Below, in pieces: positions 6,183-61,161 of a DNA stretch of 61,161 bases. The stretch's first letter is position 1. Each line of letters begins with the position of its first letter. Under the pieces are notes generated by a model, which was not told the DNA's origin, ran no database searches, and saw nothing but the letters and a program-made list of their open reading frames with translations. The stretch is taken from positions 1,135 to 62,295 of the forward strand of contig CAZNVT010000001.1 of the NCBI GenBank assembly GCA_964577025.1. The letters run 5' to 3'. A program made the translations under genes and the position numbers. Source of the DNA: an uncultured Candidatus Saccharibacteria bacterium (GTDB lineage Bacteria; Patescibacteriota; Minisyncoccia; Phycocordibacterales; Phycocordibacteraceae).

Positions 6183-6256
6183 TGCGGGATCGTCTAATGG
6201 TAGGACTTCGGTTTCTGGTACCGACTATCTAGGTTCGAGTCCTAGTCCCGCAGCCA
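6183..6256 (+). tRNA. tRNA-Gln (anticodon CUG), CCA encoded
   Basis: Acceptor TGCGGGA/TCCCGCA with U1:A72. Anticodon stem TCGGT/ACCGA with loop TTCTGGT. T arm CTAGG-TTCGAGT-CCTAG. Discriminator G, then CCA. Confidence 0.9.
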
Positions 6257-6353
6257 ACTCGAGCTAGGTTATCGCGCACGAGACGCGTCGATAACTTGGG
6301 GGAAAGTTTCTCCATCCCGAAAAGGCATACCGGCTGAGAGCCGTATTCAGAAC

Positions 6354-6381
6354 AAAAAACCGCCTTATGGGCGGTTTTTTG
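6354..6381. terminator. A/U-flanked hairpin (bidirectional terminator-like)
   Basis: AAAAAACCGCC-TTATG-GGCGGTTTTTTG, just upstream of the first CDF gene. Confidence 0.6.
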
Positions 6382-6394
6382 TTATTATGACTCT

Positions 6395-7309
6395 ATGAGC
6401 GGAAATCATAATCACGGCCACGATGCCGGTCGGGGCCTCGGTTTTGGCTTCCTCATTAACACCTCTTTTGTTGTCATCGAGTTCACCGCAGGAATCTTTT
6501 CAAACAGTCTGGCACTCATATCGGACTCGGTACACAACCTAACGGATAGTTTTAGTATTCTGTTGTCGTATCTTGCTAACCGTATTGGAAAGCGTCAGGC
6601 AGATACCACTAAGACGTTTGGGTATGGCCGCGCAACCATTTTAGCGGCCGCAATCAATGCGACCATATTGCTCGTCACTAGCGTCTTCATCTTCTACGAG
6701 GCATATCAGCGACTAATGCATCCAGAGCCAGTGAGCGGAGGTATTGTGGCCATAATTGCCGCTATTGGAATTCTCTCTAATGGAGCGGTTGCTTTTGTGG
6801 TATCTCGCAACAAGCATGACCTCAACTCCCGTGCGATTTTCGTGAGCAATTTGATGGACACGCTTTCATCTCTTGGTGCACTTATCGCCGGTATCGTTAT
6901 TTTAGTAACGCATCAAACATGGGCAGACCCGCTCATCAGTCTCCTCATTGGCGTACTGCTTCTTCGAGCAGCGTGGGAAATAATTCGTGACGCGTCCAGT
7001 GTACTTCTTGAAAGCGTTCCCAAGGGTATTGATGCTCTGAAGGTAAAGGAATCTATTCTTGGGATTGAACACATACGCGACTTGGACGACCTCCATATTT
7101 GGACTATGGGAGCGGGGGAAGCGGCGCTTAGCTGTCATATCGTCATTGACGATTGCTCTGTTAAGGAAGGGGTAAAAATCGTTAGTGTTTTGAAGCAAAT
7201 GCTCTCTACAAAATACAGCATCACTCACTCCACTATTGAGACACAAACCGAGAGCGGTCCTCATGATAACGAGCGCGCGGACGAGGGCCTGTCCGCACTC
7301 CACCTCTAG
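6395..7309 (+). CDS. czcD: cation diffusion facilitator (CzcD/ZitB-type) metal efflux transporter
   Basis: His-rich N-terminus (GNHNHGHD), six TMs, CDF signature region HNLTDSFS...TFGYGRA, C-terminal cytoplasmic domain. Confidence 0.85.
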   Translation: MSGNHNHGHDAGRGLGFGFLINTSFVVIEFTAGIFSNSLALISDSVHNLTDSFSILLSYLANRIGKRQADTTKTFGYGRATILAAAINATILLVTSVFIFYEAYQRLMHPEPVSGGIVAIIAAIGILSNGAVAFVVSRNKHDLNSRAIFVSNLMDTLSSLGALIAGIVILVTHQTWADPLISLLIGVLLLRAAWEIIRDASSVLLESVPKGIDALKVKESILGIEHIRDLDDLHIWTMGAGEAALSCHIVIDDCSVKEGVKIVSVLKQMLSTKYSITHSTIETQTESGPHDNERADEGLSALHL

Positions 7310-7330
7310 AAAAAAGGTATACTTACCACA

Positions 7331-7738
7331 ATGCTCTCTATAAAGAATAGCTTCCTTACCCTCGGAATAGGAACCTTCTTATTTATGAGTCTTTTCGGAA
7401 TGTTCCATTCCGCTATGAGTATGTCGATGGATGGAAAGATGTCCGATTGTCCATTCATGCCTGGTATGAATGTCTGCCCTATGTCTCCACTTGAACATGT
7501 ATCGTTCATGCAGAGTTTCTTCACGAATATCCCTCAACAGGAGAATCCTTTGCTCGCACTTCTGTTCTCACTCGCATTTGTCGCATTCGTAAGCGTCACT
7601 TGGTTTAAAAGATTCTTCTCGCCCCCCGATCCGAATTTAAGAGCGCTACAACATTTATATAGACAGAGATCCTTTTCAATTCTTCGTTTGCTTCAGGAAC
7701 TTTTTTCTCAGGGAATACTGAACCCCAAGCCGTTCTAG
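7331..7738 (+). CDS. Met/Cys-rich membrane protein, putative metal-binding
   Basis: MSMSMDGKMSDCPFMPGMNVCPMSPLEH between two TM helices. Lies directly upstream of copA. Confidence 0.55.
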   Translation: MLSIKNSFLTLGIGTFLFMSLFGMFHSAMSMSMDGKMSDCPFMPGMNVCPMSPLEHVSFMQSFFTNIPQQENPLLALLFSLAFVAFVSVTWFKRFFSPPDPNLRALQHLYRQRSFSILRLLQELFSQGILNPKPF

Positions 7739-7795
7739 GTCGTAGTTATTCTGCTCTCTAGCAGAATATTCTTCTTACTTATTAGAGATATCACT

Positions 7796-10090
7796 ATGGC
7801 TCAATCTAATACCTACAAAATCAAAGGCATGCATTGTGCCTCATGTGCGGGAATCATTGAAAAGACGTTCAAGAAGAAAGAAGGTGTCCATTCAGCGGAA
7901 GCAAACTACGGTACTGAAAGTGTGAAGGTCGCCTACGACGCAGAGAAGACCTCGCCAGAGCACCTCTCCAAGTCCATAGAGCCACTTGGCTACTCGCTCA
8001 TTCTGCCTACCGCAGAAGAGATGGGTATGTCCGCAGACGAACACGCAGGACATCTTGGTCTCAATCAGTCCAAGAAGGAGAAGCTCGCTGAACTTGCGGA
8101 TATGCGAGGCAAGGTGATTGTGTCTATCCCGATGGCTATTATTAGCGGTCTGATAATGGGCTGGGAACTGTTGGCACAGTTCAGTGTGCTTCCACCCGTT
8201 CCCTACGTTTGGAGTGAGTTTTTCCACCACCTCCTGCCACTGATGGCTACGTATATGCTCTTCGTGGTAGGCAAGCCGTACCTCTTGGGCTTCTACCGCT
8301 TCTTGCGCTATGGAAAGGCGAATATGGATACGCTCATCGGTATCGGTACATCAGCAGCGTATCTCTATAGTGCAATCATAATGGCGTTTGAGGAGACACT
8401 GCGCCCATTCATCAACGTAGACCACACGTACTACGACGTTGCGATAGTGGTCATTGCCTTCATAACGCTCGGCAAATACCTCGAGGCGAAGTCCAAGCTC
8501 AAGACAGGCGATGCGATAGAGAAACTACTCAACCTCCAAGCGAAGACCGCGCTCGTTGTGCGCGACGGTAAAGAAGTCGAGATACCTTCAGCACAGATTG
8601 TTCACGGAGATATAGTGGTCGTGAAGCCCGCAGGCAAGATACCTGTAGATGGCGTTATTACAGAGGGTACCTCGTTCGTGAATGAGGCGATGATAACAGG
8701 AGAGCCGATGCCCGCAGAAAAGAAAGTGGGTGATACGGTCGTGGGTGGCACACTAAACACGAGTGGCTCGTTCACCTTCAGAGCTACCAAAATCGGGTCA
8801 GAGACCCTGCTCGCCCGCATCGTGAAAATGGTGGAAGAAGCACAGGGTAGTAAAGCGCCGATACAGGCGCTCGCAGACAGAATATCGAGCATCTTCGTGC
8901 CCGTGGTACTTGTGCTTGCATTCCTCTCGCTCGGCACGTGGCTGCTTCTGGGTACTCCGTATCTTGGTTTCGCCCAAGCGCTCTCGTTTGGTCTCGTGTC
9001 ATTCGTGGGTATCCTCGTTATTGCGTGCCCTTGTGCGCTCGGTCTCGCAACCCCTACGGCTATCATCGTTGGTGTTGGGAAAGGAGCGAAGGAAGGCATC
9101 CTTATCAAGGATGCTGCGACGCTTCAGAAGCTCCATACGGTGAACACCGTCGTTCTTGATAAGACAGGAACGATTACTCGCGGCAAGCCCGAAGTTGCTT
9201 CAGTACGCAGCTTTGCTGGTCTGCCCGAAGATGAGCTGGTAGCTATTCTTGCGACACTTGAGAAGAAGTCGGAACATCCGATTGCACACGCCATTATCTC
9301 CCGAGCCGAAGAAAAGGGTCTTACTTTGCGAGCAGTAGATGGATTTGAGGCGCTCAAAGGAAAGGGTGTAAAGGGGACTATAGACGGTACTGAATACTAC
9401 GCGGGTAATGCAAAGCTCGTAGCTGATTTAGGTCTCGCACTTGATAGCTCGGTTCTCGACGAGGAAACGAAAGCTGGCAATACGCCTGTCCTCCTTGCTA
9501 CGAAGAGCAAACTGCTTGGCCTCGTTATGGTCGCAGATACAGTGAAGCCCGAAGCGAAGGAGGCAGTCGCTGCGCTCCATAAGCTCGGCATCAAGGTCGT
9601 AATGCTCACGGGAGACGATAAGAATGCCGCAGCATACATCGCTAAAGAAGTCGGCATAGACGAGGTGGTTGCAGAGGTGCTTCCTGAAGACAAGCTCAAC
9701 ACGATAAAGAAGCTGCAGGCCGAAGGGAGGATTGTGGCTATGGCAGGAGATGGCGTAAACGATGCACCTGCACTTGCACAAGCCGACGTAGGTATCGCAA
9801 TGGCGACAGGCACGGACGTAGCGATAGAAACAGCAGGCATAGCACTTCTGAATGGAGACATCTCCAAACTCGTGAAAGCCATAAAGCTCTCGAAGATAAC
9901 GATGCGCGGCATCAAGCAAAATCTCTTCTGGGCATTCATCTATAACATCGTCGGCATACCGCTTGCGGGTGGATTGTTCTATCCGTTCTTCGGCTGGCTT
10001 CTCAACCCTGTCTTTGCAGGTCTCGCAATGGCGTTCTCAAGCGTCTCGGTCGTGGGCAACTCATTACGCATCAAGTCGCAATCCCTCTAA
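7796..10090 (+). CDS. copA: copper-translocating P1B-type ATPase
   Basis: N-terminal HMA domain [14 protein letters not shown] motif ([11 protein letters not shown]), DKTGT phosphorylation site, GDGVNDAP hinge. Confidence 0.95.
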
Positions 10091-10094
10091 TCCT

Positions 10095-11114
10095 ATGGAC
10101 ACCTACACATTCCACATCAAAGGGATGCACTGCAATGCGTGCATACTGCTCACTGAAAGCGAAGTCAGCGACCTTCCGCATATTAGCTCCGTAAAATCAG
10201 ACTTGCGGCATCACACGATAGAAGTAGCAGGCGAGTTCGGCGACCGCACGCCTGACGCTATCGCGCAAGAGCTTACCGATGTTCTCTTGAAGCACGGCTA
10301 CACCGTATCCGTTGAGAAGATGGCTACAGAAAAGAAATGGTCTGACTTTGCGATAGCGATACCGATAGCTCTTGGCTTCGCCGTGTTATTTGTATTGCTG
10401 CAAAAGCTCGGCATAGTAAATCTCGTAAATACGGGCACAGTGTCGTATGGCACTGCCTTCCTTATCGGCATCATCGCTTCGCTCTCAACCTGTATGGCAG
10501 TGGTTGGTGGCTTGGTGCTCTCTATGTCTGCTACCTTCGCCAGAGAAAGCGACAAGGTGCGGCCTCAAATCCTATTCCACGTAGGCCGTCTCGCGTCGTT
10601 CTTTATTCTCGGTGGCGTCATTGGTGCTCTTGGCGCGGTGTTTACACTAAACGCGACAGCGACCTTCGTATTGAGCTTGCTCATCGGCTTGGTAATGCTC
10701 GTGCTTGGTATCAACTTATTGGAGGTATTCCATTGGTCAAAGAAGCTGCAGCCCTCAATGCCGAAGTTCTTGGCAAAGCGGGCGTATGGCGCATCGAAGC
10801 TCAATCATTCGTTGACCCCGTTTCTCGTCGGTATCGCCACCTTCTTCTTGCCGTGCGGCTTCACTCAAGCGATGCAGATATATACGCTCGGTACGGGCAG
10901 CTTCCTTAACGGTGCTCTTACAATGGGCTCCTTCGCCCTTGGTACGCTCCCCGTGCTCGGTCTCGTGAGCTTCAGCTCGTTCAGTATCAAGAACGGCAAG
11001 TATTCAGGGGTATTCTTCAAGACCGCTGGTCTCATTGTTATCTTCTTCGCTCTCTTCAATCTGATGAACAGCTTGGTTGTCATCGGTCTTATTCAGCCAC
11101 TCTTTAGTTTCTAA
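10095..11114 (+). CDS. HMA-domain fused to polytopic membrane domain (DsbD_2/TauE-like)
   Basis: ATG at 10095 (MDTYTFHIKGMHCNAC), 5 nt after the copA stop. About 6 TMs follow. The ORF-track start at 9963 overlaps copA and is rejected. Confidence 0.75.
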   Translation: MDTYTFHIKGMHCNACILLTESEVSDLPHISSVKSDLRHHTIEVAGEFGDRTPDAIAQELTDVLLKHGYTVSVEKMATEKKWSDFAIAIPIALGFAVLFVLLQKLGIVNLVNTGTVSYGTAFLIGIIASLSTCMAVVGGLVLSMSATFARESDKVRPQILFHVGRLASFFILGGVIGALGAVFTLNATATFVLSLLIGLVMLVLGINLLEVFHWSKKLQPSMPKFLAKRAYGASKLNHSLTPFLVGIATFFLPCGFTQAMQIYTLGTGSFLNGALTMGSFALGTLPVLGLVSFSSFSIKNGKYSGVFFKTAGLIVIFFALFNLMNSLVVIGLIQPLFSF

Positions 11115-11117
11115 TCT

Positions 11118-11513
11118 ATGAACAACAAACTCGTCCCTATCGCCGTTCTCGTTGGTGCTGTTCTCATCGGAGGTGTACTTCTATTCTCGGGGAAAGCAGT
11201 ACCGCAAGCGTCAGGTGGTATTGCCAATAATGTGAGTATGGTTGACGGTAAGCAGGTTATTGAAATAAACGTAAAGGGCGGATACTCACCAAAGAACAGT
11301 GTCGCAAAGGCAGGTGTTCCGACGGTGTTGAAGCTCAATACGAATGGCACGTTTGATTGCTCATCGGGTGTCCGTATTCCGAGTATGGGTATCAGCAAGA
11401 ACCTACCGCCATCAGGAACCACCGAGATAGATTTGGGAACTCCGAAAGTGGCTACATTGGATGGGGTCTGCGTTATGGGTATGTACTCGTTCAAAATAGA
11501 TTTCCAAGGATAA
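11118..11513 (+). CDS. membrane-anchored cupredoxin-like domain protein
   Basis: N-terminal TM then a beta-rich about 100-aa domain with Cys/Met (FDCSSG, GVCVMGMY). In operon with copA. Confidence 0.6.
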   Translation: MNNKLVPIAVLVGAVLIGGVLLFSGKAVPQASGGIANNVSMVDGKQVIEINVKGGYSPKNSVAKAGVPTVLKLNTNGTFDCSSGVRIPSMGISKNLPPSGTTEIDLGTPKVATLDGVCVMGMYSFKIDFQG

Positions 11514-11538
11514 AACTGACAGAGTACAATGGAGGGTA

Positions 11539-12444
11539 ATGTCAGACCACAATCATCCTCATCCCGAACCACGGAAAGGTTTGGACTTCGCCTTCGCAGT
11601 TAGCGCCATTCTCAACATCACGCTCGTTGTAGTGGAAGGCGGCTACGCGCTCTCTGCTCATTCCGTAGCATTGCTCGCGGACGCAGGACACAACCTCGGC
11701 GACGTGCTCGGTTTGCTTCTTGCGTGGGGTGCGGTCGTGCTTTCTCGGCGCTTGCCGACGAGCAAGTTCACCTATGGCTTCCGTTCAAGCTCGATACTTG
11801 CAGCGCTCCTGAATGGCGCGCTGCTTCTCGTTGCTACGGGAGCCATCATCTTGGAAGCCATCAAACATCTATATGAACCAAGTCCTGTGCAAGGTGGTGT
11901 GGTTATCATCGTCGCAGCAGTGGCTATCGCGGTAAATGCATTCTCGGCATGGCTCTTGCGCGGGAGGAAGCACGACCTCAATGCAAGAGGAGCATTTCTC
12001 CACTTGGCCGCAGACGCAGCAGTGTCGCTTGGCGTGCTTATGGCTGGCATCGTCATTCTCGCAACGGGTTGGTATTGGATTGACCCGCTCATCAGTATTG
12101 TCATTTCTCTCGTTATCGTGTGGAGTGCGTGGGGACTTTTGCGCGAGGCCGTGAACCTCTCGCTTGCTGCCGTCCCGTCTTCAATCAACCCTGCCGAGGT
12201 GAAGGGATACCTTGAAAAGCTGGCTGGCGTAGTACGCGTTCACGACCTACATATCTGGCCGATAAGCACGACGGAGATTGCTCTTACGGCTCACCTGATT
12301 ATCCCCGCAGGACATCCTGACGATGCCTTTATGGTGCGTGTATCGAGCGAACTGAAAGAACGCTTCGGCATCAACCACGCCACCCTGCAAAGCGAACTGG
12401 GTACAGCAGCGGACTGCTCTCTCGAACCTGTAGAGGTTGTATAA
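11539..12444 (+). CDS. czcD: cation diffusion facilitator transporter (second copy)
   Basis: MSDHNHPHPEP His-rich N-terminus, HNLGDVLG...FTYGFRS CDF signature, six TMs. Confidence 0.85.
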   Translation: MSDHNHPHPEPRKGLDFAFAVSAILNITLVVVEGGYALSAHSVALLADAGHNLGDVLGLLLAWGAVVLSRRLPTSKFTYGFRSSSILAALLNGALLLVATGAIILEAIKHLYEPSPVQGGVVIIVAAVAIAVNAFSAWLLRGRKHDLNARGAFLHLAADAAVSLGVLMAGIVILATGWYWIDPLISIVISLVIVWSAWGLLREAVNLSLAAVPSSINPAEVKGYLEKLAGVVRVHDLHIWPISTTEIALTAHLIIPAGHPDDAFMVRVSSELKERFGINHATLQSELGTAADCSLEPVEVV

Positions 12445-12524
12445 GCCAACCCTGTTTACACGGCTGCCATCAAGTCAGGTATGGTGATTTTGTATTGAAA
12501 ACTCGATTTGCCAGCTAAAAGAAC

Positions 12525-12552
12525 GGTTCTAACTTCGTCCAGTGCCCGCAGC
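12525..12552 (+). repeat. degenerate copy of the tRNA-Gln 3' end (T-loop to discriminator)
   Basis: GGTTCTAACTTCGTCCAGTGCCCGCAGC compared with tRNA GGTTCGAGTCCTAGTCCCGCAGC. Followed by the same A(A)TTGAC promoter junction as at 13477. Confidence 0.6.
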
Positions 12553-12554
12553 AA

Positions 12555-12582
12555 TTGACTTTCTATATTAGTGTGCTAATTT
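12555..12582 (+). promoter_or_regulatory. putative sigma70-type promoter of the 195-aa ORF
   Basis: TTGACT, 16 nt spacer, TAATTT. The -35 abuts the tRNA-like junction. Confidence 0.4.
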
Positions 12583-12618
12583 GAATATTGGGTAGAAATT
12601 CGTACAAGGGGAAGTGCA

Positions 12619-13206
12619 ATGCACAGACGAAAGAGTTATTGGAATGTAATTCCGCTCAATCTCCGTCAGGAGAACGGAGCTGAAATTCTAAGGGCTTGGG
12701 GTTTCCGTCCATGGGGCCGGGACTTCGGAGACGAACTTGTCTATAAGGGTTGGCAGCGCGTATCACTGCCGCCGGGATGGGCAATCCTCTTCGAGGAGTA
12801 CGAGCTGATTCTTGTCGATGACAAGGAGCAGCAGCGAGGGCGAATCAGCGTCGGCGACTTCCTTCCGCGCACGGAGCCCACTGGGCTCATGAAAGCTATC
12901 TCCGATGGTCTTACGGAAGCTCACGCAACCGCGGGCGAGAAGAAGTCCGAGCCTCCGGGTCCAGTGCTCTCGCTGATGACGTACATCCGCAAGCAATCAT
13001 CGTTCTGCCTCGGCGATACCGGCCCTTATTCCTACTGGGTCGAGAACGCCCTCGGCGAAAGACTCTTCGGTCTGTACGACGTCGAAGTGTCTGACGCTGA
13101 AGCGGAGGAGAAACTTCCTCAGCTCAAGCAGCAGATCGACGACTGGCTCACCGAGCATTATCCCAACTGGCAGGACTACGCCGCCTACTGGGATGTGTCC
13201 GAGTAA
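12619..13206 (+). CDS. hypothetical cytoplasmic protein (no family recognised)
   Basis: 195-aa ORF with RBS AAGGGGA 6 nt upstream. G/C-rich third codon positions, unlike the neighbours. Followed by two hairpin terminators. Confidence 0.7.
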   Translation: MHRRKSYWNVIPLNLRQENGAEILRAWGFRPWGRDFGDELVYKGWQRVSLPPGWAILFEEYELILVDDKEQQRGRISVGDFLPRTEPTGLMKAISDGLTEAHATAGEKKSEPPGPVLSLMTYIRKQSSFCLGDTGPYSYWVENALGERLFGLYDVEVSDAEAEEKLPQLKQQIDDWLTEHYPNWQDYAAYWDVSE

Positions 13207-13211
13207 GCTGG

Positions 13212-13250
13212 GGCCGCCTGTTTCCGAAAGGGAACGGCGGCTCTTCTATT
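13212..13250 (+). terminator. GNRA-capped hairpin (P1) after the 195-aa ORF
   Basis: GGCCGCC-TGTTTCC-GAAA-GGGAAC-GGCGGC then TCTTCTATTT. Homologous to 14152-14181. Confidence 0.6.
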
Positions 13251-13282
13251 TAATAAAGGTTCCCACGTCGTACCAAACCCCC

Positions 13283-13323
13283 AGCAAATGAGAAGCGCCC
13301 GCAAGGGCGTTTTCTCGTTTGCT
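13283..13323 (+). terminator. intrinsic terminator-like long hairpin (P2)
   Basis: AGCAAATGAGAA-GCGCCC-GCAA-GGGCG-TTTTCTCGTTTGCT. U-G wobbles fit the plus strand only. Confidence 0.65.
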
Positions 13324-13476
13324 GCGGGAAGGAAGCAGAGCTTCCGTCTAGGACTCGAACGCCGGACTGATGTTTTGCTAGCAGGCAAAACCAGGAGGCG
13401 GTGCCCAGAGCCTGGTGAGTGACGACGAGCCAGGACTCGCGGGCGAGAAGTGTAATCACGTTCCTAGTCCCGCAGC
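13321..13476 (+). ncRNA. tRNA-Gln minihelix-mimicking structured element, copy A
   Basis: 5' GCTGCGGGA pairs with 3' TCCCGCAGC. CTAGG (13348-52) pairs with CCTAG (13463-67). P3 hairpin is GGAAGC-AGA-GCTTCC, with internal hairpins at 13364-13440. 15 nt are identical to tRNA-Gln 6240-6254. Confidence 0.6.
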
Positions 13477-13477
13477 A

Positions 13478-13506
13478 TTGACCTTATCCATTTAATATAC
13501 TATAAA
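13478..13506 (+). promoter_or_regulatory. sigma70-type promoter of the ClpP-like gene
   Basis: TTGACC, 17 nt spacer, TATAAA, starting 1 nt after the structured element. Confidence 0.6.
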
Positions 13507-13559
13507 TTCTTACAGACTAGCCTCAGCTAGATAACGAATTACCTTTCAGGAGAATCGCA

Positions 13560-14129
13560 GTGAATCAAGAACTGTCACCGAATCAGTTCGCGTTGCTCGA
13601 ACGCAACGTGCTTTATCTCGAAGGCGAGGTGCGCGGAGAGATGGTGGATCAGGTCCATTTCAGCATTATGGAACTCGATGGAAGGGGGAGTCCTCCGATC
13701 GAAATCCGGATCTATACCGGCGGCGGCGATGTTCATGCAGGGCTCGCTGTCTACGACTTCCTCCGCCGCTATGAGGGCAAGAAGACCGGCGTCGTCTACG
13801 GATACGCGCGCTCAATGGGTGCTGTCATCCTGCAGGCGTGCGACGAGCGTCTCTGTCTTCCGTATTCGACAGTGCTCATTCATCACGTGAGCACAACCAG
13901 TGTGTCGCTCGACGAGCTCGAGGACCCTGATCGTCTAGACCGCCTGCGCAAATCGCTGCAGGCTGACCAGGAGACCCTGTACGAAATCCTTGTCACCCGA
14001 TCCGGCAAGACCAAAGAAGAGGTGCGAGACGCCTGCAAGAAGGACAAGGATATGACAGCAAAAGAGGCCTTGGATTTTGGCCTCATCGACAAAATCGTTG
14101 TATCCGAGCCCGTTAAGCCCTCGGACTGA
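13560..14129 (+). CDS. ClpP-family (S14) serine protease-like protein, orphan
   Basis: GTG start with RBS AGGAGA. Candidate triad residues are ARSMG (Ser), LIHHV (His) and KKDKDMTAKEA (Asp). C-terminal GLIDKIV. Confidence 0.8.
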   Translation: MNQELSPNQFALLERNVLYLEGEVRGEMVDQVHFSIMELDGRGSPPIEIRIYTGGGDVHAGLAVYDFLRRYEGKKTGVVYGYARSMGAVILQACDERLCLPYSTVLIHHVSTTSVSLDELEDPDRLDRLRKSLQADQETLYEILVTRSGKTKEEVRDACKKDKDMTAKEALDFGLIDKIVVSEPVKPSD

Positions 14130-14151
14130 AAACTACATTCGAAGCAGTGGA

Positions 14152-14181
14152 GCCGCCTAGTACCGAAAGGGAACGGCGGCT
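14152..14181 (+). terminator. GNRA-capped hairpin (P1, copy B)
   Basis: GCCGCC-TAGTACC-GAAA-GGGAAC-GGCGGC then TTTCG. Confidence 0.55.
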
Positions 14182-14220
14182 TTCGCAGATATATTCGTTC
14201 GAATATCGTCCCAGACGGCC

Positions 14221-14261
14221 AGCAAATGGAAAGGCCCCGAAAGGGGCTTTTTCCATTTGCT
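14221..14261 (+). terminator. intrinsic terminator-like long hairpin (P2, copy B)
   Basis: AGCAAATGGAAA-GGCCCC-GAAA-GGGGC-TTTTTCCATTTGCT. Compensatory changes relative to copy A. Confidence 0.7.
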
Positions 14262-14404
14262 GCGGGAAGTTGCCGTGGGACGGCAACGGCTAGGACGAGA
14301 AGATGTTGCGAGCATATTCTGGGAGCGGAGCGAGCCAGAATATCCGCAACGTGTACAGAACCCGTAAGGTTCGAGAGTGTAATCACGTTCCTAGTCCCGC
14401 AGCA
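14259..14404 (+). ncRNA. tRNA-Gln minihelix-mimicking structured element, copy B
   Basis: Same framing strands as copy A: GCTGCGGGA, CTAGGAC, GTGTAATCACGTTCCTAGTCCCGCAGCA. P3 is GTTGCCG-TGGGA-CGGCAAC. A different long internal hairpin is GTTGCG..ATATTCTGG/CCAGAATAT..CGCAAC. Confidence 0.6.
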
Positions 14405-14441
14405 ACAGAAGATTTTGAGAAAAATTAGGTAAAATTCATAC

Positions 14442-14897
14442 ATGCAAAAAATACATTTTTCAATCCATATCAACGCACCACGCGAAAAAGTCTGGGATAT
14501 TCTACTTGGAGAAGTTTCGTATACTCAGTGGGCGAGTGCTTTTAGTCCTGGCTCGTATTTTAAGGGAAGTTGGGAAGAGGGTTCAGAAATACTTTTTCTT
14601 GGACCTAATCCTGACGGGACTGGTGAAGGAGGAATGGTGAGCCGCATTAAAGAGAATCGGCTTCATGAATTTATCTCTATCGAGCATCTTGGAACGATTA
14701 ATAATGGTGTCGAAGATACTGAAAGCGAGGAAGCAAAAAAGTGGGCTCAGTCGTATGAAAGTTATACGTTTGTCGACAAGGATGGAGGCACAGAAGTCTC
14801 GATTGAAATGAACACTCTGGATGAGTACAAAACAATGTTTGAAGAAATGTGGCCCAAGGCGCTTCAGGCCCTGAAGGACTTGGCTGAAAAGAATTAG
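14442..14897 (+). CDS. SRPBCC/AHSA1-like domain protein
   Basis: HFSIHINAPREKVWDILL start typical of the Activator-of-Hsp90-ATPase-like/SRPBCC fold. 151 aa. Confidence 0.7.
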   Translation: MQKIHFSIHINAPREKVWDILLGEVSYTQWASAFSPGSYFKGSWEEGSEILFLGPNPDGTGEGGMVSRIKENRLHEFISIEHLGTINNGVEDTESEEAKKWAQSYESYTFVDKDGGTEVSIEMNTLDEYKTMFEEMWPKALQALKDLAEKN

Positions 14898-60100: not shown

Positions 60101-60169
60101 GTGTCTCATCGTCCTAGTACTGAACCCGAGTAGCCCGCACTTGACAAAATAGTTCAGTGGTGATAATAT
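60101..60169 (+). promoter_or_regulatory. degenerate copy of the cassette junction motif fused to a strong promoter
   Basis: GTGTCTCATCGTCCTAGT..(15 nt)..CCCGCAC-TTGACA, 17 nt spacer, TAATAT. Compare GTGTAATCACGTTCCTAGTCCCGCAGCA-TTGACC at 13450. Confidence 0.55.
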
Positions 60170-60175
60170 ATACCT

Positions 60176-60292
60176 ATCTTTGAAGTGAGCTGTTTACGGC
60201 TTACAACTGGCCTCGTGCTGGAACTTTTTACAACTAGGCCGTAAACAATTCATTTCAACGCAAAACGCCCCGTACCCGCGGGGCGTTTTGCG
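60176..60292 (+). ncRNA. candidate small RNA bounded by promoter and intrinsic terminator
   Basis: 10-bp helix TGTTTACGGC/GCCGTAAACA encloses duplicated TTACAACT(G/A)GCC. Terminator AAAACGCCCCG-TACCCG-CGGGGCGTTTTG. No ORF. Confidence 0.45.
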
Positions 60293-60792: not shown

Positions 60793-61136
60793 AAGGACTG
60801 GTTCAGGCGATCGCTGTAGCTTCTTTCGAGAATGTTATAGAGGAAAGTCCGAACACAGGCAGTGCGAAAGCATTGATCAGCCGGGTAGCGGGTAACGCCC
60901 GTCCGCAGTAATGCGCGAGGTGCGAACAGTGACGCTTGACGCGAAAGCAACAAGCATCTCTTCGAGATGAATTTCTATGGCGACATAGAAAATGAAACGG
61001 CTAAATCCTTACCTCTGTGCAAGGCCGTGTCCAGCTTCGGCTGGAAGTGCCGCTCGAGGCGGTTGGTAACAATCGTCCCAGATAAATGGTCGTCCGTGGC
61101 TTGCCACGACAGAATTCGGCTTATCGAGCCAGTCAA
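60793..61136 (+). ncRNA. rnpB: RNase P RNA (bacterial type A)
   Basis: GAGGAAAGTCCGAACAC, GGTAACGCC, AGATAAATGG, ACAGAATTCGGCTTAT. P1 pairing GACTGG/CCAGTC. Extended -10 TGGTATAAT at 60780-60788. Confidence 0.88.
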
Positions 61137-61161
61137 AAACAATTATGTGAAATCCGCCTCT

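Follow-up and report, generated by a model that had tools for sequence, protein, structure and literature searches.

Patescibacteria, the candidate phyla radiation (CPR), have tiny genomes, and the ways in which they acquire and shuffle genes are poorly understood. Islands littered with partial tRNA genes, left behind by successive integrations, are an established pattern (10.1101/2020.12.28.424599). The window analysed here, a 61-kb stretch of DNA from a Patescibacteria genome, appears to contain part of an island of this kind, in which two single-gene cassettes alternate with two structured modules that carry no open reading frame (ORF) and reproduce helices of the host's own tRNA-Gln(CTG). 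As in the tRNA islands exemplified by the Prochlorococcus tycheposons, with their tandem accretion and cis-mobilisable remnants, a tRNA gene stands at the start, full or partial copies of its 3′ end lie at the unit boundaries, the content differs completely between syntenic relatives and the cargo is adaptive (metal resistance). The cassette part fits the pattern at an unusually miniature scale, no integrase having been found. The best explanation appears to be a composite one, to which we assign a probability of about one half: an insertion hotspot at tRNA-Gln that holds single-gene cassettes together with a tRNA-Gln-derived structured RNA or mini-element.

Organization of the array

From left to right, the array reads J′; promoter, ORF195, P1 and J; P2, element and Q; promoter, ClpP-like gene, P1 and J; P2, element and Q; and finally an SRPBCC gene. 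J is a conserved repeat lying between the hairpins P1 and P2 (GGTTC.AA..TCGTCCCAGAC.GCCAGCA), and Q is a 15-nt copy of the tRNA-Gln 3′ end. Related loci in other genomes are labelled with L-numbers; the located relatives of the ClpP-like gene and of ORF195 belong, like the window, to Patescibacteria. The features of the array and its template are as follows.

6183–6256, + strand: tRNA-Gln(CTG), template of the repeats (ARAGORN; Rfam tRNA model, 57.5 bits)
12525–12554, + strand: J′ junction, GGTTCTAACTTCGTCCAGTGCCCGCAGCAA, decayed and tRNA-3′-end-like, probable left boundary of the ORF195 cassette (homology to L003 begins at 12549)
12555–12582, + strand: predicted sigma-70-type promoter of ORF195, TTGACT, 16 nt, TGC-TAATTT (extended −10), read from the sequence
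12619–13206, + strand: ORF195, 195 aa, no known family (ORF call, Pfam)
13213–13241, + strand: P1 of unit 1, GAAA-capped hairpin with U-rich tail, predicted intrinsic terminator of ORF195 (sequence; present behind the L003 homologue)
13258–13286, + strand: J of unit 1, GGTTCCCACGTCGTACCAAACCCCCAGCA, probable right boundary of the ORF195 cassette (junction table; L003 homology stops at 13279)
13282–13324 (overlapping J) and 14220–14262, + strand: P2
13287–13477, + strand: module 1, ORF-less, P2 plus element plus Q (folding, alignment, covariance model)
13478–13506, + strand: predicted promoter of the ClpP-like gene, TTGACC, 17 nt, TATAAA (sequence; conserved in L007, L043, L044 and L045)
13560–14129, + strand: ClpP-like serine protease, 189 aa (Pfam CLP_protease, 1.7e-27)
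14152–14180, + strand: P1 of unit 2, predicted terminator of the ClpP-like gene (matching hairpin behind the ClpP-like genes of L007, L044 and L045)
14197–14224, + strand: J of unit 2, GTTCGAATATCGTCCCAGACGGCCAGCA, probable right boundary of the ClpP cassette (near-identical J copies around the L044 ClpP cassette)
14225–14404, + strand: module 2, ORF-less, P2 plus element plus Q (closely homologous to L050 11236–11456)

The initial annotation of this DNA had described two tandem units, each with a promoter abutting a 28-nt repeat, the hairpins P1 and P2 and a folded element of roughly 150 nt, and all of these were recovered where it had placed them, as was the single ORF of each unit, a 195-aa orphan followed by the ClpP-like protease. 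The −35 boxes, TTGAC(T/C), come directly after ...GCAGCA(A) at 12555 and 13478.

The window contains exactly two copies of the 28-mer, GTGTAATCACGTTCCTAGTCCCGCAGCA (13450–13477 and 14377–14404), a result matched by 0 of 100 shuffles. Of its last 16 nt, the 15 in front of the closing A (TCCTAGTCCCGCAGC) agree without a mismatch with tRNA-Gln(CTG) positions 6240–6254, from T-loop position 60 to C74; these copies, Q, lie at 13462–13476 in unit 1 and at 14389–14403 in unit 2. In unit 1, the 13 nt at 13348–13360 also match the T loop and T stem exactly in reverse complement. Such identities bear on the view that the region is pure transcriptional punctuation, a stack of terminators or insulators whose likeness to tRNA-Gln is incidental. 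P2 does score as terminator-like, and each element has convergently insulated transcription units on its two sides; set against this, about 0.002 chance 15-mer matches are expected in the window, so that neither the 15-nt match to the tRNA end nor the 13-nt inverted match looks fortuitous, the element of L050 stands directly after tRNA-Gln with no ORF upstream, and cassettes elsewhere manage with P1 alone. Punctuation as the whole explanation is, on these grounds, very improbable.

A structured module modelled on tRNA-Gln

Each module, composed of P2, the element of about 150 nt and Q, occupies the 180–190 nt between J and the next promoter. The ends of the element form a perfect 10-bp inverted repeat, TGCTGCGGGA (13320–13329; 14258–14267) and TCCCGCAGCA, and the resulting outer stem equals the acceptor stem of the window tRNA-Gln (TGCGGGA/TCCCGCA) extended by 3 bp. 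The second stem, CTAGGAC/GTTCCTAG, with CTAGGAC at 13348–13354 in module 1, equals the T stem. Hairpin A, at 13331–13345 in module 1, varies in its stem, is capped by a G-rich loop and sits where the D arm would be. Inside the second stem follow helix B, GTGTAC, hairpin C with a YGUAA loop, and hairpin D (GTGTAATCAC, 13450–13459 in module 1). The element can thus be described as the acceptor and T-stem shell of tRNA-Gln, with a branched domain instead of the T loop. That the element was built on a tRNA-Gln template, as first proposed, is borne out by these two stems, and its separation from integron attC sites also holds. Its boundaries contain no GTTRRRY: the ends are the inverted repeat given above and the junction reads ...GCAGCA/TTGAC.

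The post-ORF tails of the two units share 67% identity where they align, and both fold far better than shuffled sequences (z = −7.0 and −7.15). In an alignment of the element from unit 2 (u2), L050 and unit 1 (u1), paired cells amounted to 87.8%, against 31–38% when the partners were slid by 1–3 columns. Compensatory changes were found in 11 of the 47 helix pairs, compared with 4.3 ± 1.5 in shuffles (0 of 500 reaching 11) and 0–5 in the slid controls. They include five pairs of helix B, a U:A to C:G change in hairpin D and a G:C to A:U change in the outer stem, and four more compensatory pairs can be read between the two window copies of P2. The claim that the helices are kept while the primary sequence diverges is therefore upheld, and the structure of the element is under selection. 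The plus strand folds better than the minus strand in u1, u2, L024 and P2, where G-U pairs also favour it, and about equally well in L050, L023 and L007. A minus-strand RNA gene was considered and rejected, given the lack of a consistent promoter and the better fold of the plus strand.

Filled and empty sites

The most informative comparison is with L050, which is syntenic with the window (RF, FtsE, FtsX, CTP synthase and a 308-aa protein to one side of the locus, zf_Tbcl_2 and DAO to the other). Here a close homologue of the unit 2 element (11236–11456) is found 23 nt 3′ of tRNA-Gln(CTG), without P2 or ORF. The insert as a whole, 11214–11456 (243 bp), lies between copies of a 16-nt direct repeat, TCCTAGTCTCGCAGCC, which is the tRNA end itself, and the DNA 3′ of the element is homologous to window positions 6257–6300, which directly follow the window tRNA-Gln. 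Judged from this alignment, the tRNA-Gln site of L050 appears to be filled and that of the window empty. At the other type of site, the window and L007 have gained 160–190 nt between J and the ClpP promoter relative to L044, in which J touches TTGAC. Presence and absence at the level of single units, which the initial annotation had anticipated, is thus seen for the element, at tRNA-Gln in L050 and not in the window, and at the junction of J with the ClpP promoter in the window and L007 and not in L044.

The acceptor stem of the L050 tRNA-Gln is TGCGAGA/TCTCGCA and the stem of its element GGCTGCGAGA/TCTCGCAGCC, so that the element stems of L050 and of the window each match their own acceptor and both arms of the outer stem track the host tRNA-Gln. 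L050 holds additional partial copies of tRNA-Gln. At the ancestral tRNA position (11054–11140), a decayed pseudo-tRNA-Gln is present: its acceptor reads TGCCAGA, a stretch resembling a D arm follows, and an extended hairpin has CTG in its loop. The intact tRNA-Gln lies 87 nt beyond it; the two standing side by side indicate a locus that has been repeatedly rearranged. The T region of this pseudo-tRNA (GGTCGAAGAATCGTCG) is J-like, which supports the notion that J may be a worn tRNA-Gln-type 3′ end.

Terminal inverted repeats around a short insert also call to mind a miniature inverted-repeat transposable element (MITE) or a palindromic element of the IS200/IS605 type, inserting 3′ of CAGCA with the transposase supplied in trans. 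The 10-bp terminal repeats are perfect in u1, u2 and L050, hairpins lie near both ends (P2 and hairpin D), the size of 180–243 bp is suitable, and CAGCA flanks the window modules on both sides (J ...CCAGCA, module ...GCAGCA), although not those of L007 or L050. Against such an origin, there is no target duplication of fixed length, the 16-nt repeat of L050 being the tRNA end; two copies per 61 kb at 67% identity are not a burst of near-identical copies; the right end is missing in L007; no transposase, TnpA or TnpB was found among the Pfam-scanned ORFs of the window; and the ends track the host tRNA-Gln, unlike ends defined by a transposase. We regard a transposable element of this type as very unlikely.

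Distribution of the element

The initial annotation had proposed a covariance model as a way to look for further copies. Such a model, R1, was built from the three copies u1, u2 and L050 and used to scan 279 kb of loci, and it returned two further, weak matches, both beside tRNA-Gln(UUG) in Saccharibacteria. The match in L023 (7282–7421) lies 30 nt downstream of tRNA-Gln, and that in L024 (7296–7425) between a partial 5′ copy and the intact tRNA-Gln. Two independent matches within 200 nt of tRNA-Gln are unlikely to have arisen by chance. Both have an outer stem like an acceptor, a GGG loop on hairpin A, an apical loop GAGC-N-AGCGAA(AU), the sequence GGUGUAC and a YGUAA(G) loop on hairpin C, the last three being motifs that recur across classes; the GAGC-N-AGCGAA motif is shared by L007. 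Every copy has the orientation of tRNA-Gln, and the element stands by itself beside this gene in L050, L023 and L024.

Several details of the two Saccharibacteria loci deserve mention. Positions 7239–7584 of L024 comprise a partial 5′ tRNA-Gln (acceptor, D-arm remnant, anticodon-arm-like hairpin and 5′ strand of the T stem), two tandem structured modules and the intact tRNA-Gln, each module consisting of a hairpin, GCAAGACC, helix B, AAGGTGTAC and hairpin C. In L023, the tRNA-Gln-adjacent element is directly followed by ORFs (7541–8897) that contain a GIY-YIG domain and an HNH repeat of the homing-endonuclease-associated type. No repeat of the tRNA-Gln end measuring 14 nt or more was found in L023 or L024. 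An identical 20-nt sequence, ATTTCCTCCCAGACAACCAA, marks gene boundaries in otherwise non-homologous variable DNA at L023 9391–9412 and L024 9912–9933; in both genomes this site lies between tRNA-Gln and the ClpP-like gene, and its sequence is similar to that of J (TCGTCCCAGACGGCCA).

No described family accounts for the element. Rfam 15 (4227 families, including group I and II introns and small ribozymes), searched at gathering and at permissive thresholds, gave no match to the element in the window, L023, L024 or L050, in agreement with the earlier statement that no described element was recognised; the scans of these four sequences returned only true tRNAs and RNase P. With the Rfam tRNA and tmRNA models the elements remained unmatched even at E ≤ 10, and ARAGORN found the two real tRNAs only. 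Viral contigs scanned with Q plus the inverted repeat, with the J of L008 and with the Saccharibacteria boundary and core motifs yielded nothing or one chance match in coding sequence, and a metagenome scan with the P2 pattern gave three chance matches inside genes.

A number of candidate identities were tried and set aside. A tRNA-Gln gene with an intron was dismissed because removal of the insert leaves no anticodon arm. The likeness to the P and Q boxes of a group I intron stems from the acceptor stem, the invariant positions fail and no covariance model matches. A hammerhead core around UGAGC...GCGAAA would violate the invariant C3, G5 and A6. A dif/Xer site lacks the XerD half-site, and for a retron non-coding RNA there is no reverse transcriptase nearby.

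Single-gene cassettes bounded by J

The sole homologue of ORF195 that was found, 79% identical, belongs to another Patescibacteria metagenome-assembled genome (MAG; L003), where it lies between alaS and an unrelated gene. That unit has the promoter and P1 of the window unit and J-like sequence at both sides, without P2 or element, and the DNA homology (window 12549–13279, L003 4710–5440) extends from J′ to J. No match to ORF195 was found in PHROGs, PADLOC or NCBIfam.

The ClpP-like protein retains the serine of ARSMG and the histidine of LIHH, and its family numbers about 38 relatives, all those in located genomes being from Patescibacteria. A contig search with the single protein returned nothing, and an alignment-based search gave eight Patescibacteria loci. 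The protein is absent from PADLOC, and in PHROGs and NCBIfam it has only generic ClpP or head-maturation-protease matches. By BLAST it is about 30% identical to ClpP-like phage proteins, some of them annotated as head maturation proteases, and the region as a whole has no DNA match in GenBank phages. Upstream of the gene, a hairpin in the 5′ untranslated region (13515–13535: CAGACTAGC-loop-GCTAGA, stem CTAGC/GCTAG) has an invariant stem and a variable loop in five genomes (window, L007, L043, L044 and L045) and may serve as an mRNA stabiliser or regulatory site.

The homologous block of the ClpP cassette (window 13462–14234, L044 528–1293) runs from Q or J to J. In L044 a promoter–ORF123–terminator unit precedes the ClpP-like gene, with near-identical J on either side and J touching the −35 box. 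In L008, three repeats of TCGAATCTCGTCCCAyAACGmCCGC (0.22 expected by chance) bracket a ClpP-like gene and a 100-aa ORF, and these units adjoin a prophage-like block that encodes an S24 repressor and an N6/N4 methylase. A tRNA 3′ end with its T arm intact directly precedes the ClpP cassette and its promoter in L049, and in L042/L043, L007 and L045 the cassette lies elsewhere within the same neighbourhood, close to ABC-like and SOUL genes. In a Buchananbacteria MAG (L026, about 850–1105), a 17-nt partial repeat of the end of tRNA-Asp (GCGGAGACGAAGGGACT) lies between the ClpP-like gene and the intact tRNA-Asp; it is an att-type duplication at another tRNA.

It is clear from these loci that the cassettes are promoter–ORF–P1 units bounded by J, of which the large structured element is not a part. 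J bounds single-gene units without the large element in three other Patescibacteria contigs (L003, L008 and L044), and arrays of J-type units occur in L008 (three repeats) and L044 (two). On sequence comparison, the unit boundary appears to be J, a second and decayed tRNA-3′-end-like repeat, and P1 would be a terminator that belongs to the genes and travels with their homologues. Promoter modules are homologous among three unrelated ORFs (ORF195, ORF123 and ORF100, in the contexts of L044, L008 and L003) and P1 hairpins are nearly identical between two unrelated gene families, which indicates that modules have been shuffled.

The initial annotation needs correction on several of these points. 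The modular nature of the region stands, since homology of the promoter–ORF–terminator blocks to L003 and L044 starts and ends at tRNA-3′-end-like repeats. P1, which it had counted among the specific structures of the cassette, is the genes' own terminator, following homologues in L003, L007, L044 and L045; nor is the element of about 150 nt an obligatory part, for L003, L008 and L044 have the short J only, and L050, L023 and L024 the element alone. A degenerate junction does precede unit 1, though as a J-type site (12525–12554) and not as a decayed 28-mer spanning 12525–12560. For the further junction copy suggested at 60101–60146, a weak resemblance and nothing stronger appeared in the junction table. 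The picture of a cassette array with structured recombination sites holds as regards tandem units and arrays; as a recombination site, the element is at most a candidate.

Could the whole region be nothing more than ordinary decayed integrase-mediated insertions, with J and Q as att (attachment-site) scars and the structured stretch as a functionless attR arm region left by larger elements or prophages that targeted tRNA-Gln and lost their integrase? Integrative elements classically show direct repeats of a tRNA 3′ end and accrete in tandem at a tRNA, the ClpP-like unit of L008 lies beside a prophage-like block, the partial tRNA-Asp repeat of L026 adjoins a ClpP-like gene, and L050 has its extra partial tRNA-Gln copies. 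Yet att arm regions are not expected to keep their helices through 11 compensatory changes, nor to maintain, 150–220 nt away, an inverted repeat that agrees with the host tRNA; the architecture and the loop motifs turn up again beside tRNA-Gln in another class, and Pfam detected no integrase fragments in the examined ORFs of any island. Decayed insertions alone are accordingly an unlikely account. The att scars, the MITE and the terminator stack each fail at least one tested feature.

Proposed origin and weighing of the evidence

According to the composite reading, the region would be part of a variable island at a tRNA-Gln hotspot. The cassettes would be moron-like, each with its own strong sigma-70 promoter, one ORF and P1, and with ends coinciding with J (decayed) or Q (intact); J and Q would be the scars of repeated site-specific insertion at or beside copies of the tRNA-Gln 3′ end, presumably catalysed by a recombinase encoded elsewhere. 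The module is most likely a functional RNA domain in a tRNA-like scaffold derived from tRNA-Gln. At its primary site, represented by L050 and L023, it lies directly downstream of tRNA-Gln in the same orientation, where it could be co-transcribed with the tRNA and then trimmed by tRNA-processing enzymes, for instance RNase P followed by 3′ end trimming. The same tRNA-3′-end-directed recombination that moved the cassettes may have duplicated and relocated the module. A structured RNA is favoured because of the compensatory helices, the strand bias, the loop motifs common to different classes and the constant orientation relative to tRNA-Gln.

Several observations weigh against this composite. 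The Saccharibacteria matches are weak (E about 1e-3, on a rough calibration), the L007 copy is without the outer stem and right end, and four to six family members in all were recovered. The element has no anticodon arm or T loop, which makes recognition by tRNA enzymes speculative, and the 3′ tail in the window is CA, not CCA. The window modules sit behind two terminator-like hairpins, P1 and P2, and no conserved promoter was recognised for them. The derivation of J from a tRNA-Gln-type 3′ end is a matter of similarity, with an ambiguous tRNA frame, compatible with a T stem that is non-canonical or with an acceptor of 8 bp. The empty site of the window is explained equally by a precise deletion between the 16-nt repeats. 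Finally, Pfam searches found no integrase or recombinase in the 61-kb window (about 40 ORFs), in 21 kb around L050 or near L023 and L024.

The same element may alternatively be read as DNA, namely as a recombination site that folds from single strands in the manner of integrons or of the CTX phage. The inverted repeat would rebuild the duplex 3′ end of tRNA-Gln and so mimic attB, and a tyrosine recombinase acting in trans would insert the element, with or without a promoter–ORF cassette, at tRNA-Gln or at J and Q, building arrays such as those seen downstream of tRNA-Gln. The inverted repeat and the T-stem repeat do reproduce the tRNA duplex, with an extrahelical hairpin as its interruption; the ends change together with the tRNA-Gln of their own host; the structure is kept in a strand-specific fold while the sequence has diverged; and the ORF-less 243-bp insert of L050 with its 16-nt repeats is short for a double-stranded circle as substrate. 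This explanation deals with the mimicry of the tRNA duplex and with the tiny insert as well as a structured RNA does. It is a serious alternative, though a less probable one: no recombinase was found nearby, the cassettes of L003, L008 and L044 carry the 28-nt J only and no foldable element, the cassettes have their own promoters, a single-stranded DNA stage would have to be assumed, and loop motifs common to the Paceibacteria-like and Saccharibacteria copies would not be expected of an att hairpin. Much the same tentative standing, well short of even odds, belongs to the broader proposal of an integron-like but unrelated cassette system of Patescibacteria, with miniature units ending in a tRNA-Gln 3′ copy, a trans-acting recombinase and a folded single-stranded att that mimics the end of the host tRNA-Gln. 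The co-occurring recombinase that the initial annotation had suggested looking for did not turn up in the window or the related loci, and 'integron-like' is used here as an analogy.

Neighbouring genes and other observations

Two further features of the window flank the array.

6257–12524, + strand: variable island segment 3′ of tRNA-Gln with metal-resistance genes (Pfam)
14442–14897, + strand: SRPBCC/AHSA1-like gene after the array (Pfam)

The metal-resistance block of about 6 kb (6257–12444) lies directly 3′ of tRNA-Gln and encodes, in this order, a cation diffusion facilitator (CDF) transporter, a 135-aa ORF, a Cu-ATPase with an HMA domain, an HMA-DsbD_2 protein, a cupredoxin and a second CDF. 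It is missing from the syntenic L050, which has unrelated genes there, and the whole gap from tRNA-Gln to zf_Tbcl_2 and DAO differs entirely in gene content between the two. A gene of the SRPBCC fold (AHSA1 or Polyketide_cyc) follows the ClpP-like gene both in the window (13560–14897) and in the Saccharibacteria locus L023 (10001–11168), in each case a few kilobases downstream of tRNA-Gln, and the two genes may be an old conserved pair.

Near the right end of the window (60101–60292), the weak J-like sequence mentioned above (CATCGTCCTAGT...AGCCCGCAC) abuts a TTGACA-N17-TAATAT promoter, behind which come about 120 nt rich in inverted repeats and a strong terminator (CAACGCAAAACGCCCC...GGGGCGTTTTGCGTTG). 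The arrangement suggests a candidate small RNA gene, just 5′ of a DUF192 gene and of the RNase P RNA (60795–61139). In L050, an ORF with LAGLIDADG_3 (1257–2117) is called across a predicted tRNA-Met (1272–1345), which could be a mis-call or an association of intron and endonuclease.

Comparison with known systems

Self-expressed single-gene cassettes that recur at differing positions in related genomes offer a testable handle on gene flux in Patescibacteria, and the element adds a structured family of 150–250 nt, without an Rfam match, that spans at least two Patescibacteria classes and is always beside or templated on tRNA-Gln. As in tRNA-targeting integrative elements, the insert of L050 is flanked by the tRNA 3′ repeat and the tRNA is intact; unlike such elements, the units encode no integrase of their own. 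The locus departs from the known tRNA islands in that the units measure 0.2–0.9 kb and contain one ORF or none, that one type of unit is structured and tRNA-matched at its far end as well, and that the 61-kb window and the examined ORFs of the related loci yielded neither a tyrosine recombinase nor a replication module.

With phage morons the cassettes share a promoter, one ORF and a factor-independent terminator placed between other genes, and the ClpP-like protein its identity of about 30% with phage prohead proteases. No prophage-like genes were seen around the units of the window, L003, L007 and L044, however, such a context being present in L008 only. Morons are not known to carry direct repeats resembling a tRNA 3′ end.

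Tandem single-ORF units with conserved ends and a variable middle, together with a conserved single-strand fold bearing an extrahelical hairpin, are reminiscent of integron cassettes and attC, and ORF-less cassettes exist in integrons too. In contrast, R″/R′ core sites (RYYYAAC/GTTRRRY) and an attI/Pc arrangement are absent here, no IntI was found among the Pfam-scanned ORFs of the window, each cassette brings a promoter and a terminator of its own, the boundary is the short J and not the folded element, and the template is a tRNA. The attP of the CTX phage and other integrative mobile elements exploiting Xer (IMEX), and the pdif modules of Acinetobacter, likewise involve small modules bounded by short recombinase-type sites, and the single-stranded hairpin of CTX folds into a duplex that copies the chromosomal target. 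J and Q differ from these in having no dif-like XerC/XerD half-sites, in being direct and not alternating repeats and in targeting a tRNA gene. Were the element to act as DNA, it would be a new folded recombination site, the third after integron attC and CTX-type attP.

As an RNA, the element may be compared with the tRNA-like domain of tmRNA, the YrlA Y RNAs and viral tRNA-like structures, with which it shares acceptor-like pairing of the ends, a T-stem-like helix and a large inserted domain; in three genomes it is next to and co-oriented with a tRNA gene. It differs from them in having no T loop, anticodon arm or G3:U70 and in copying the stems of tRNA-Gln specifically. If it does function as RNA, it would represent a natural tRNA-scaffolded non-coding RNA.

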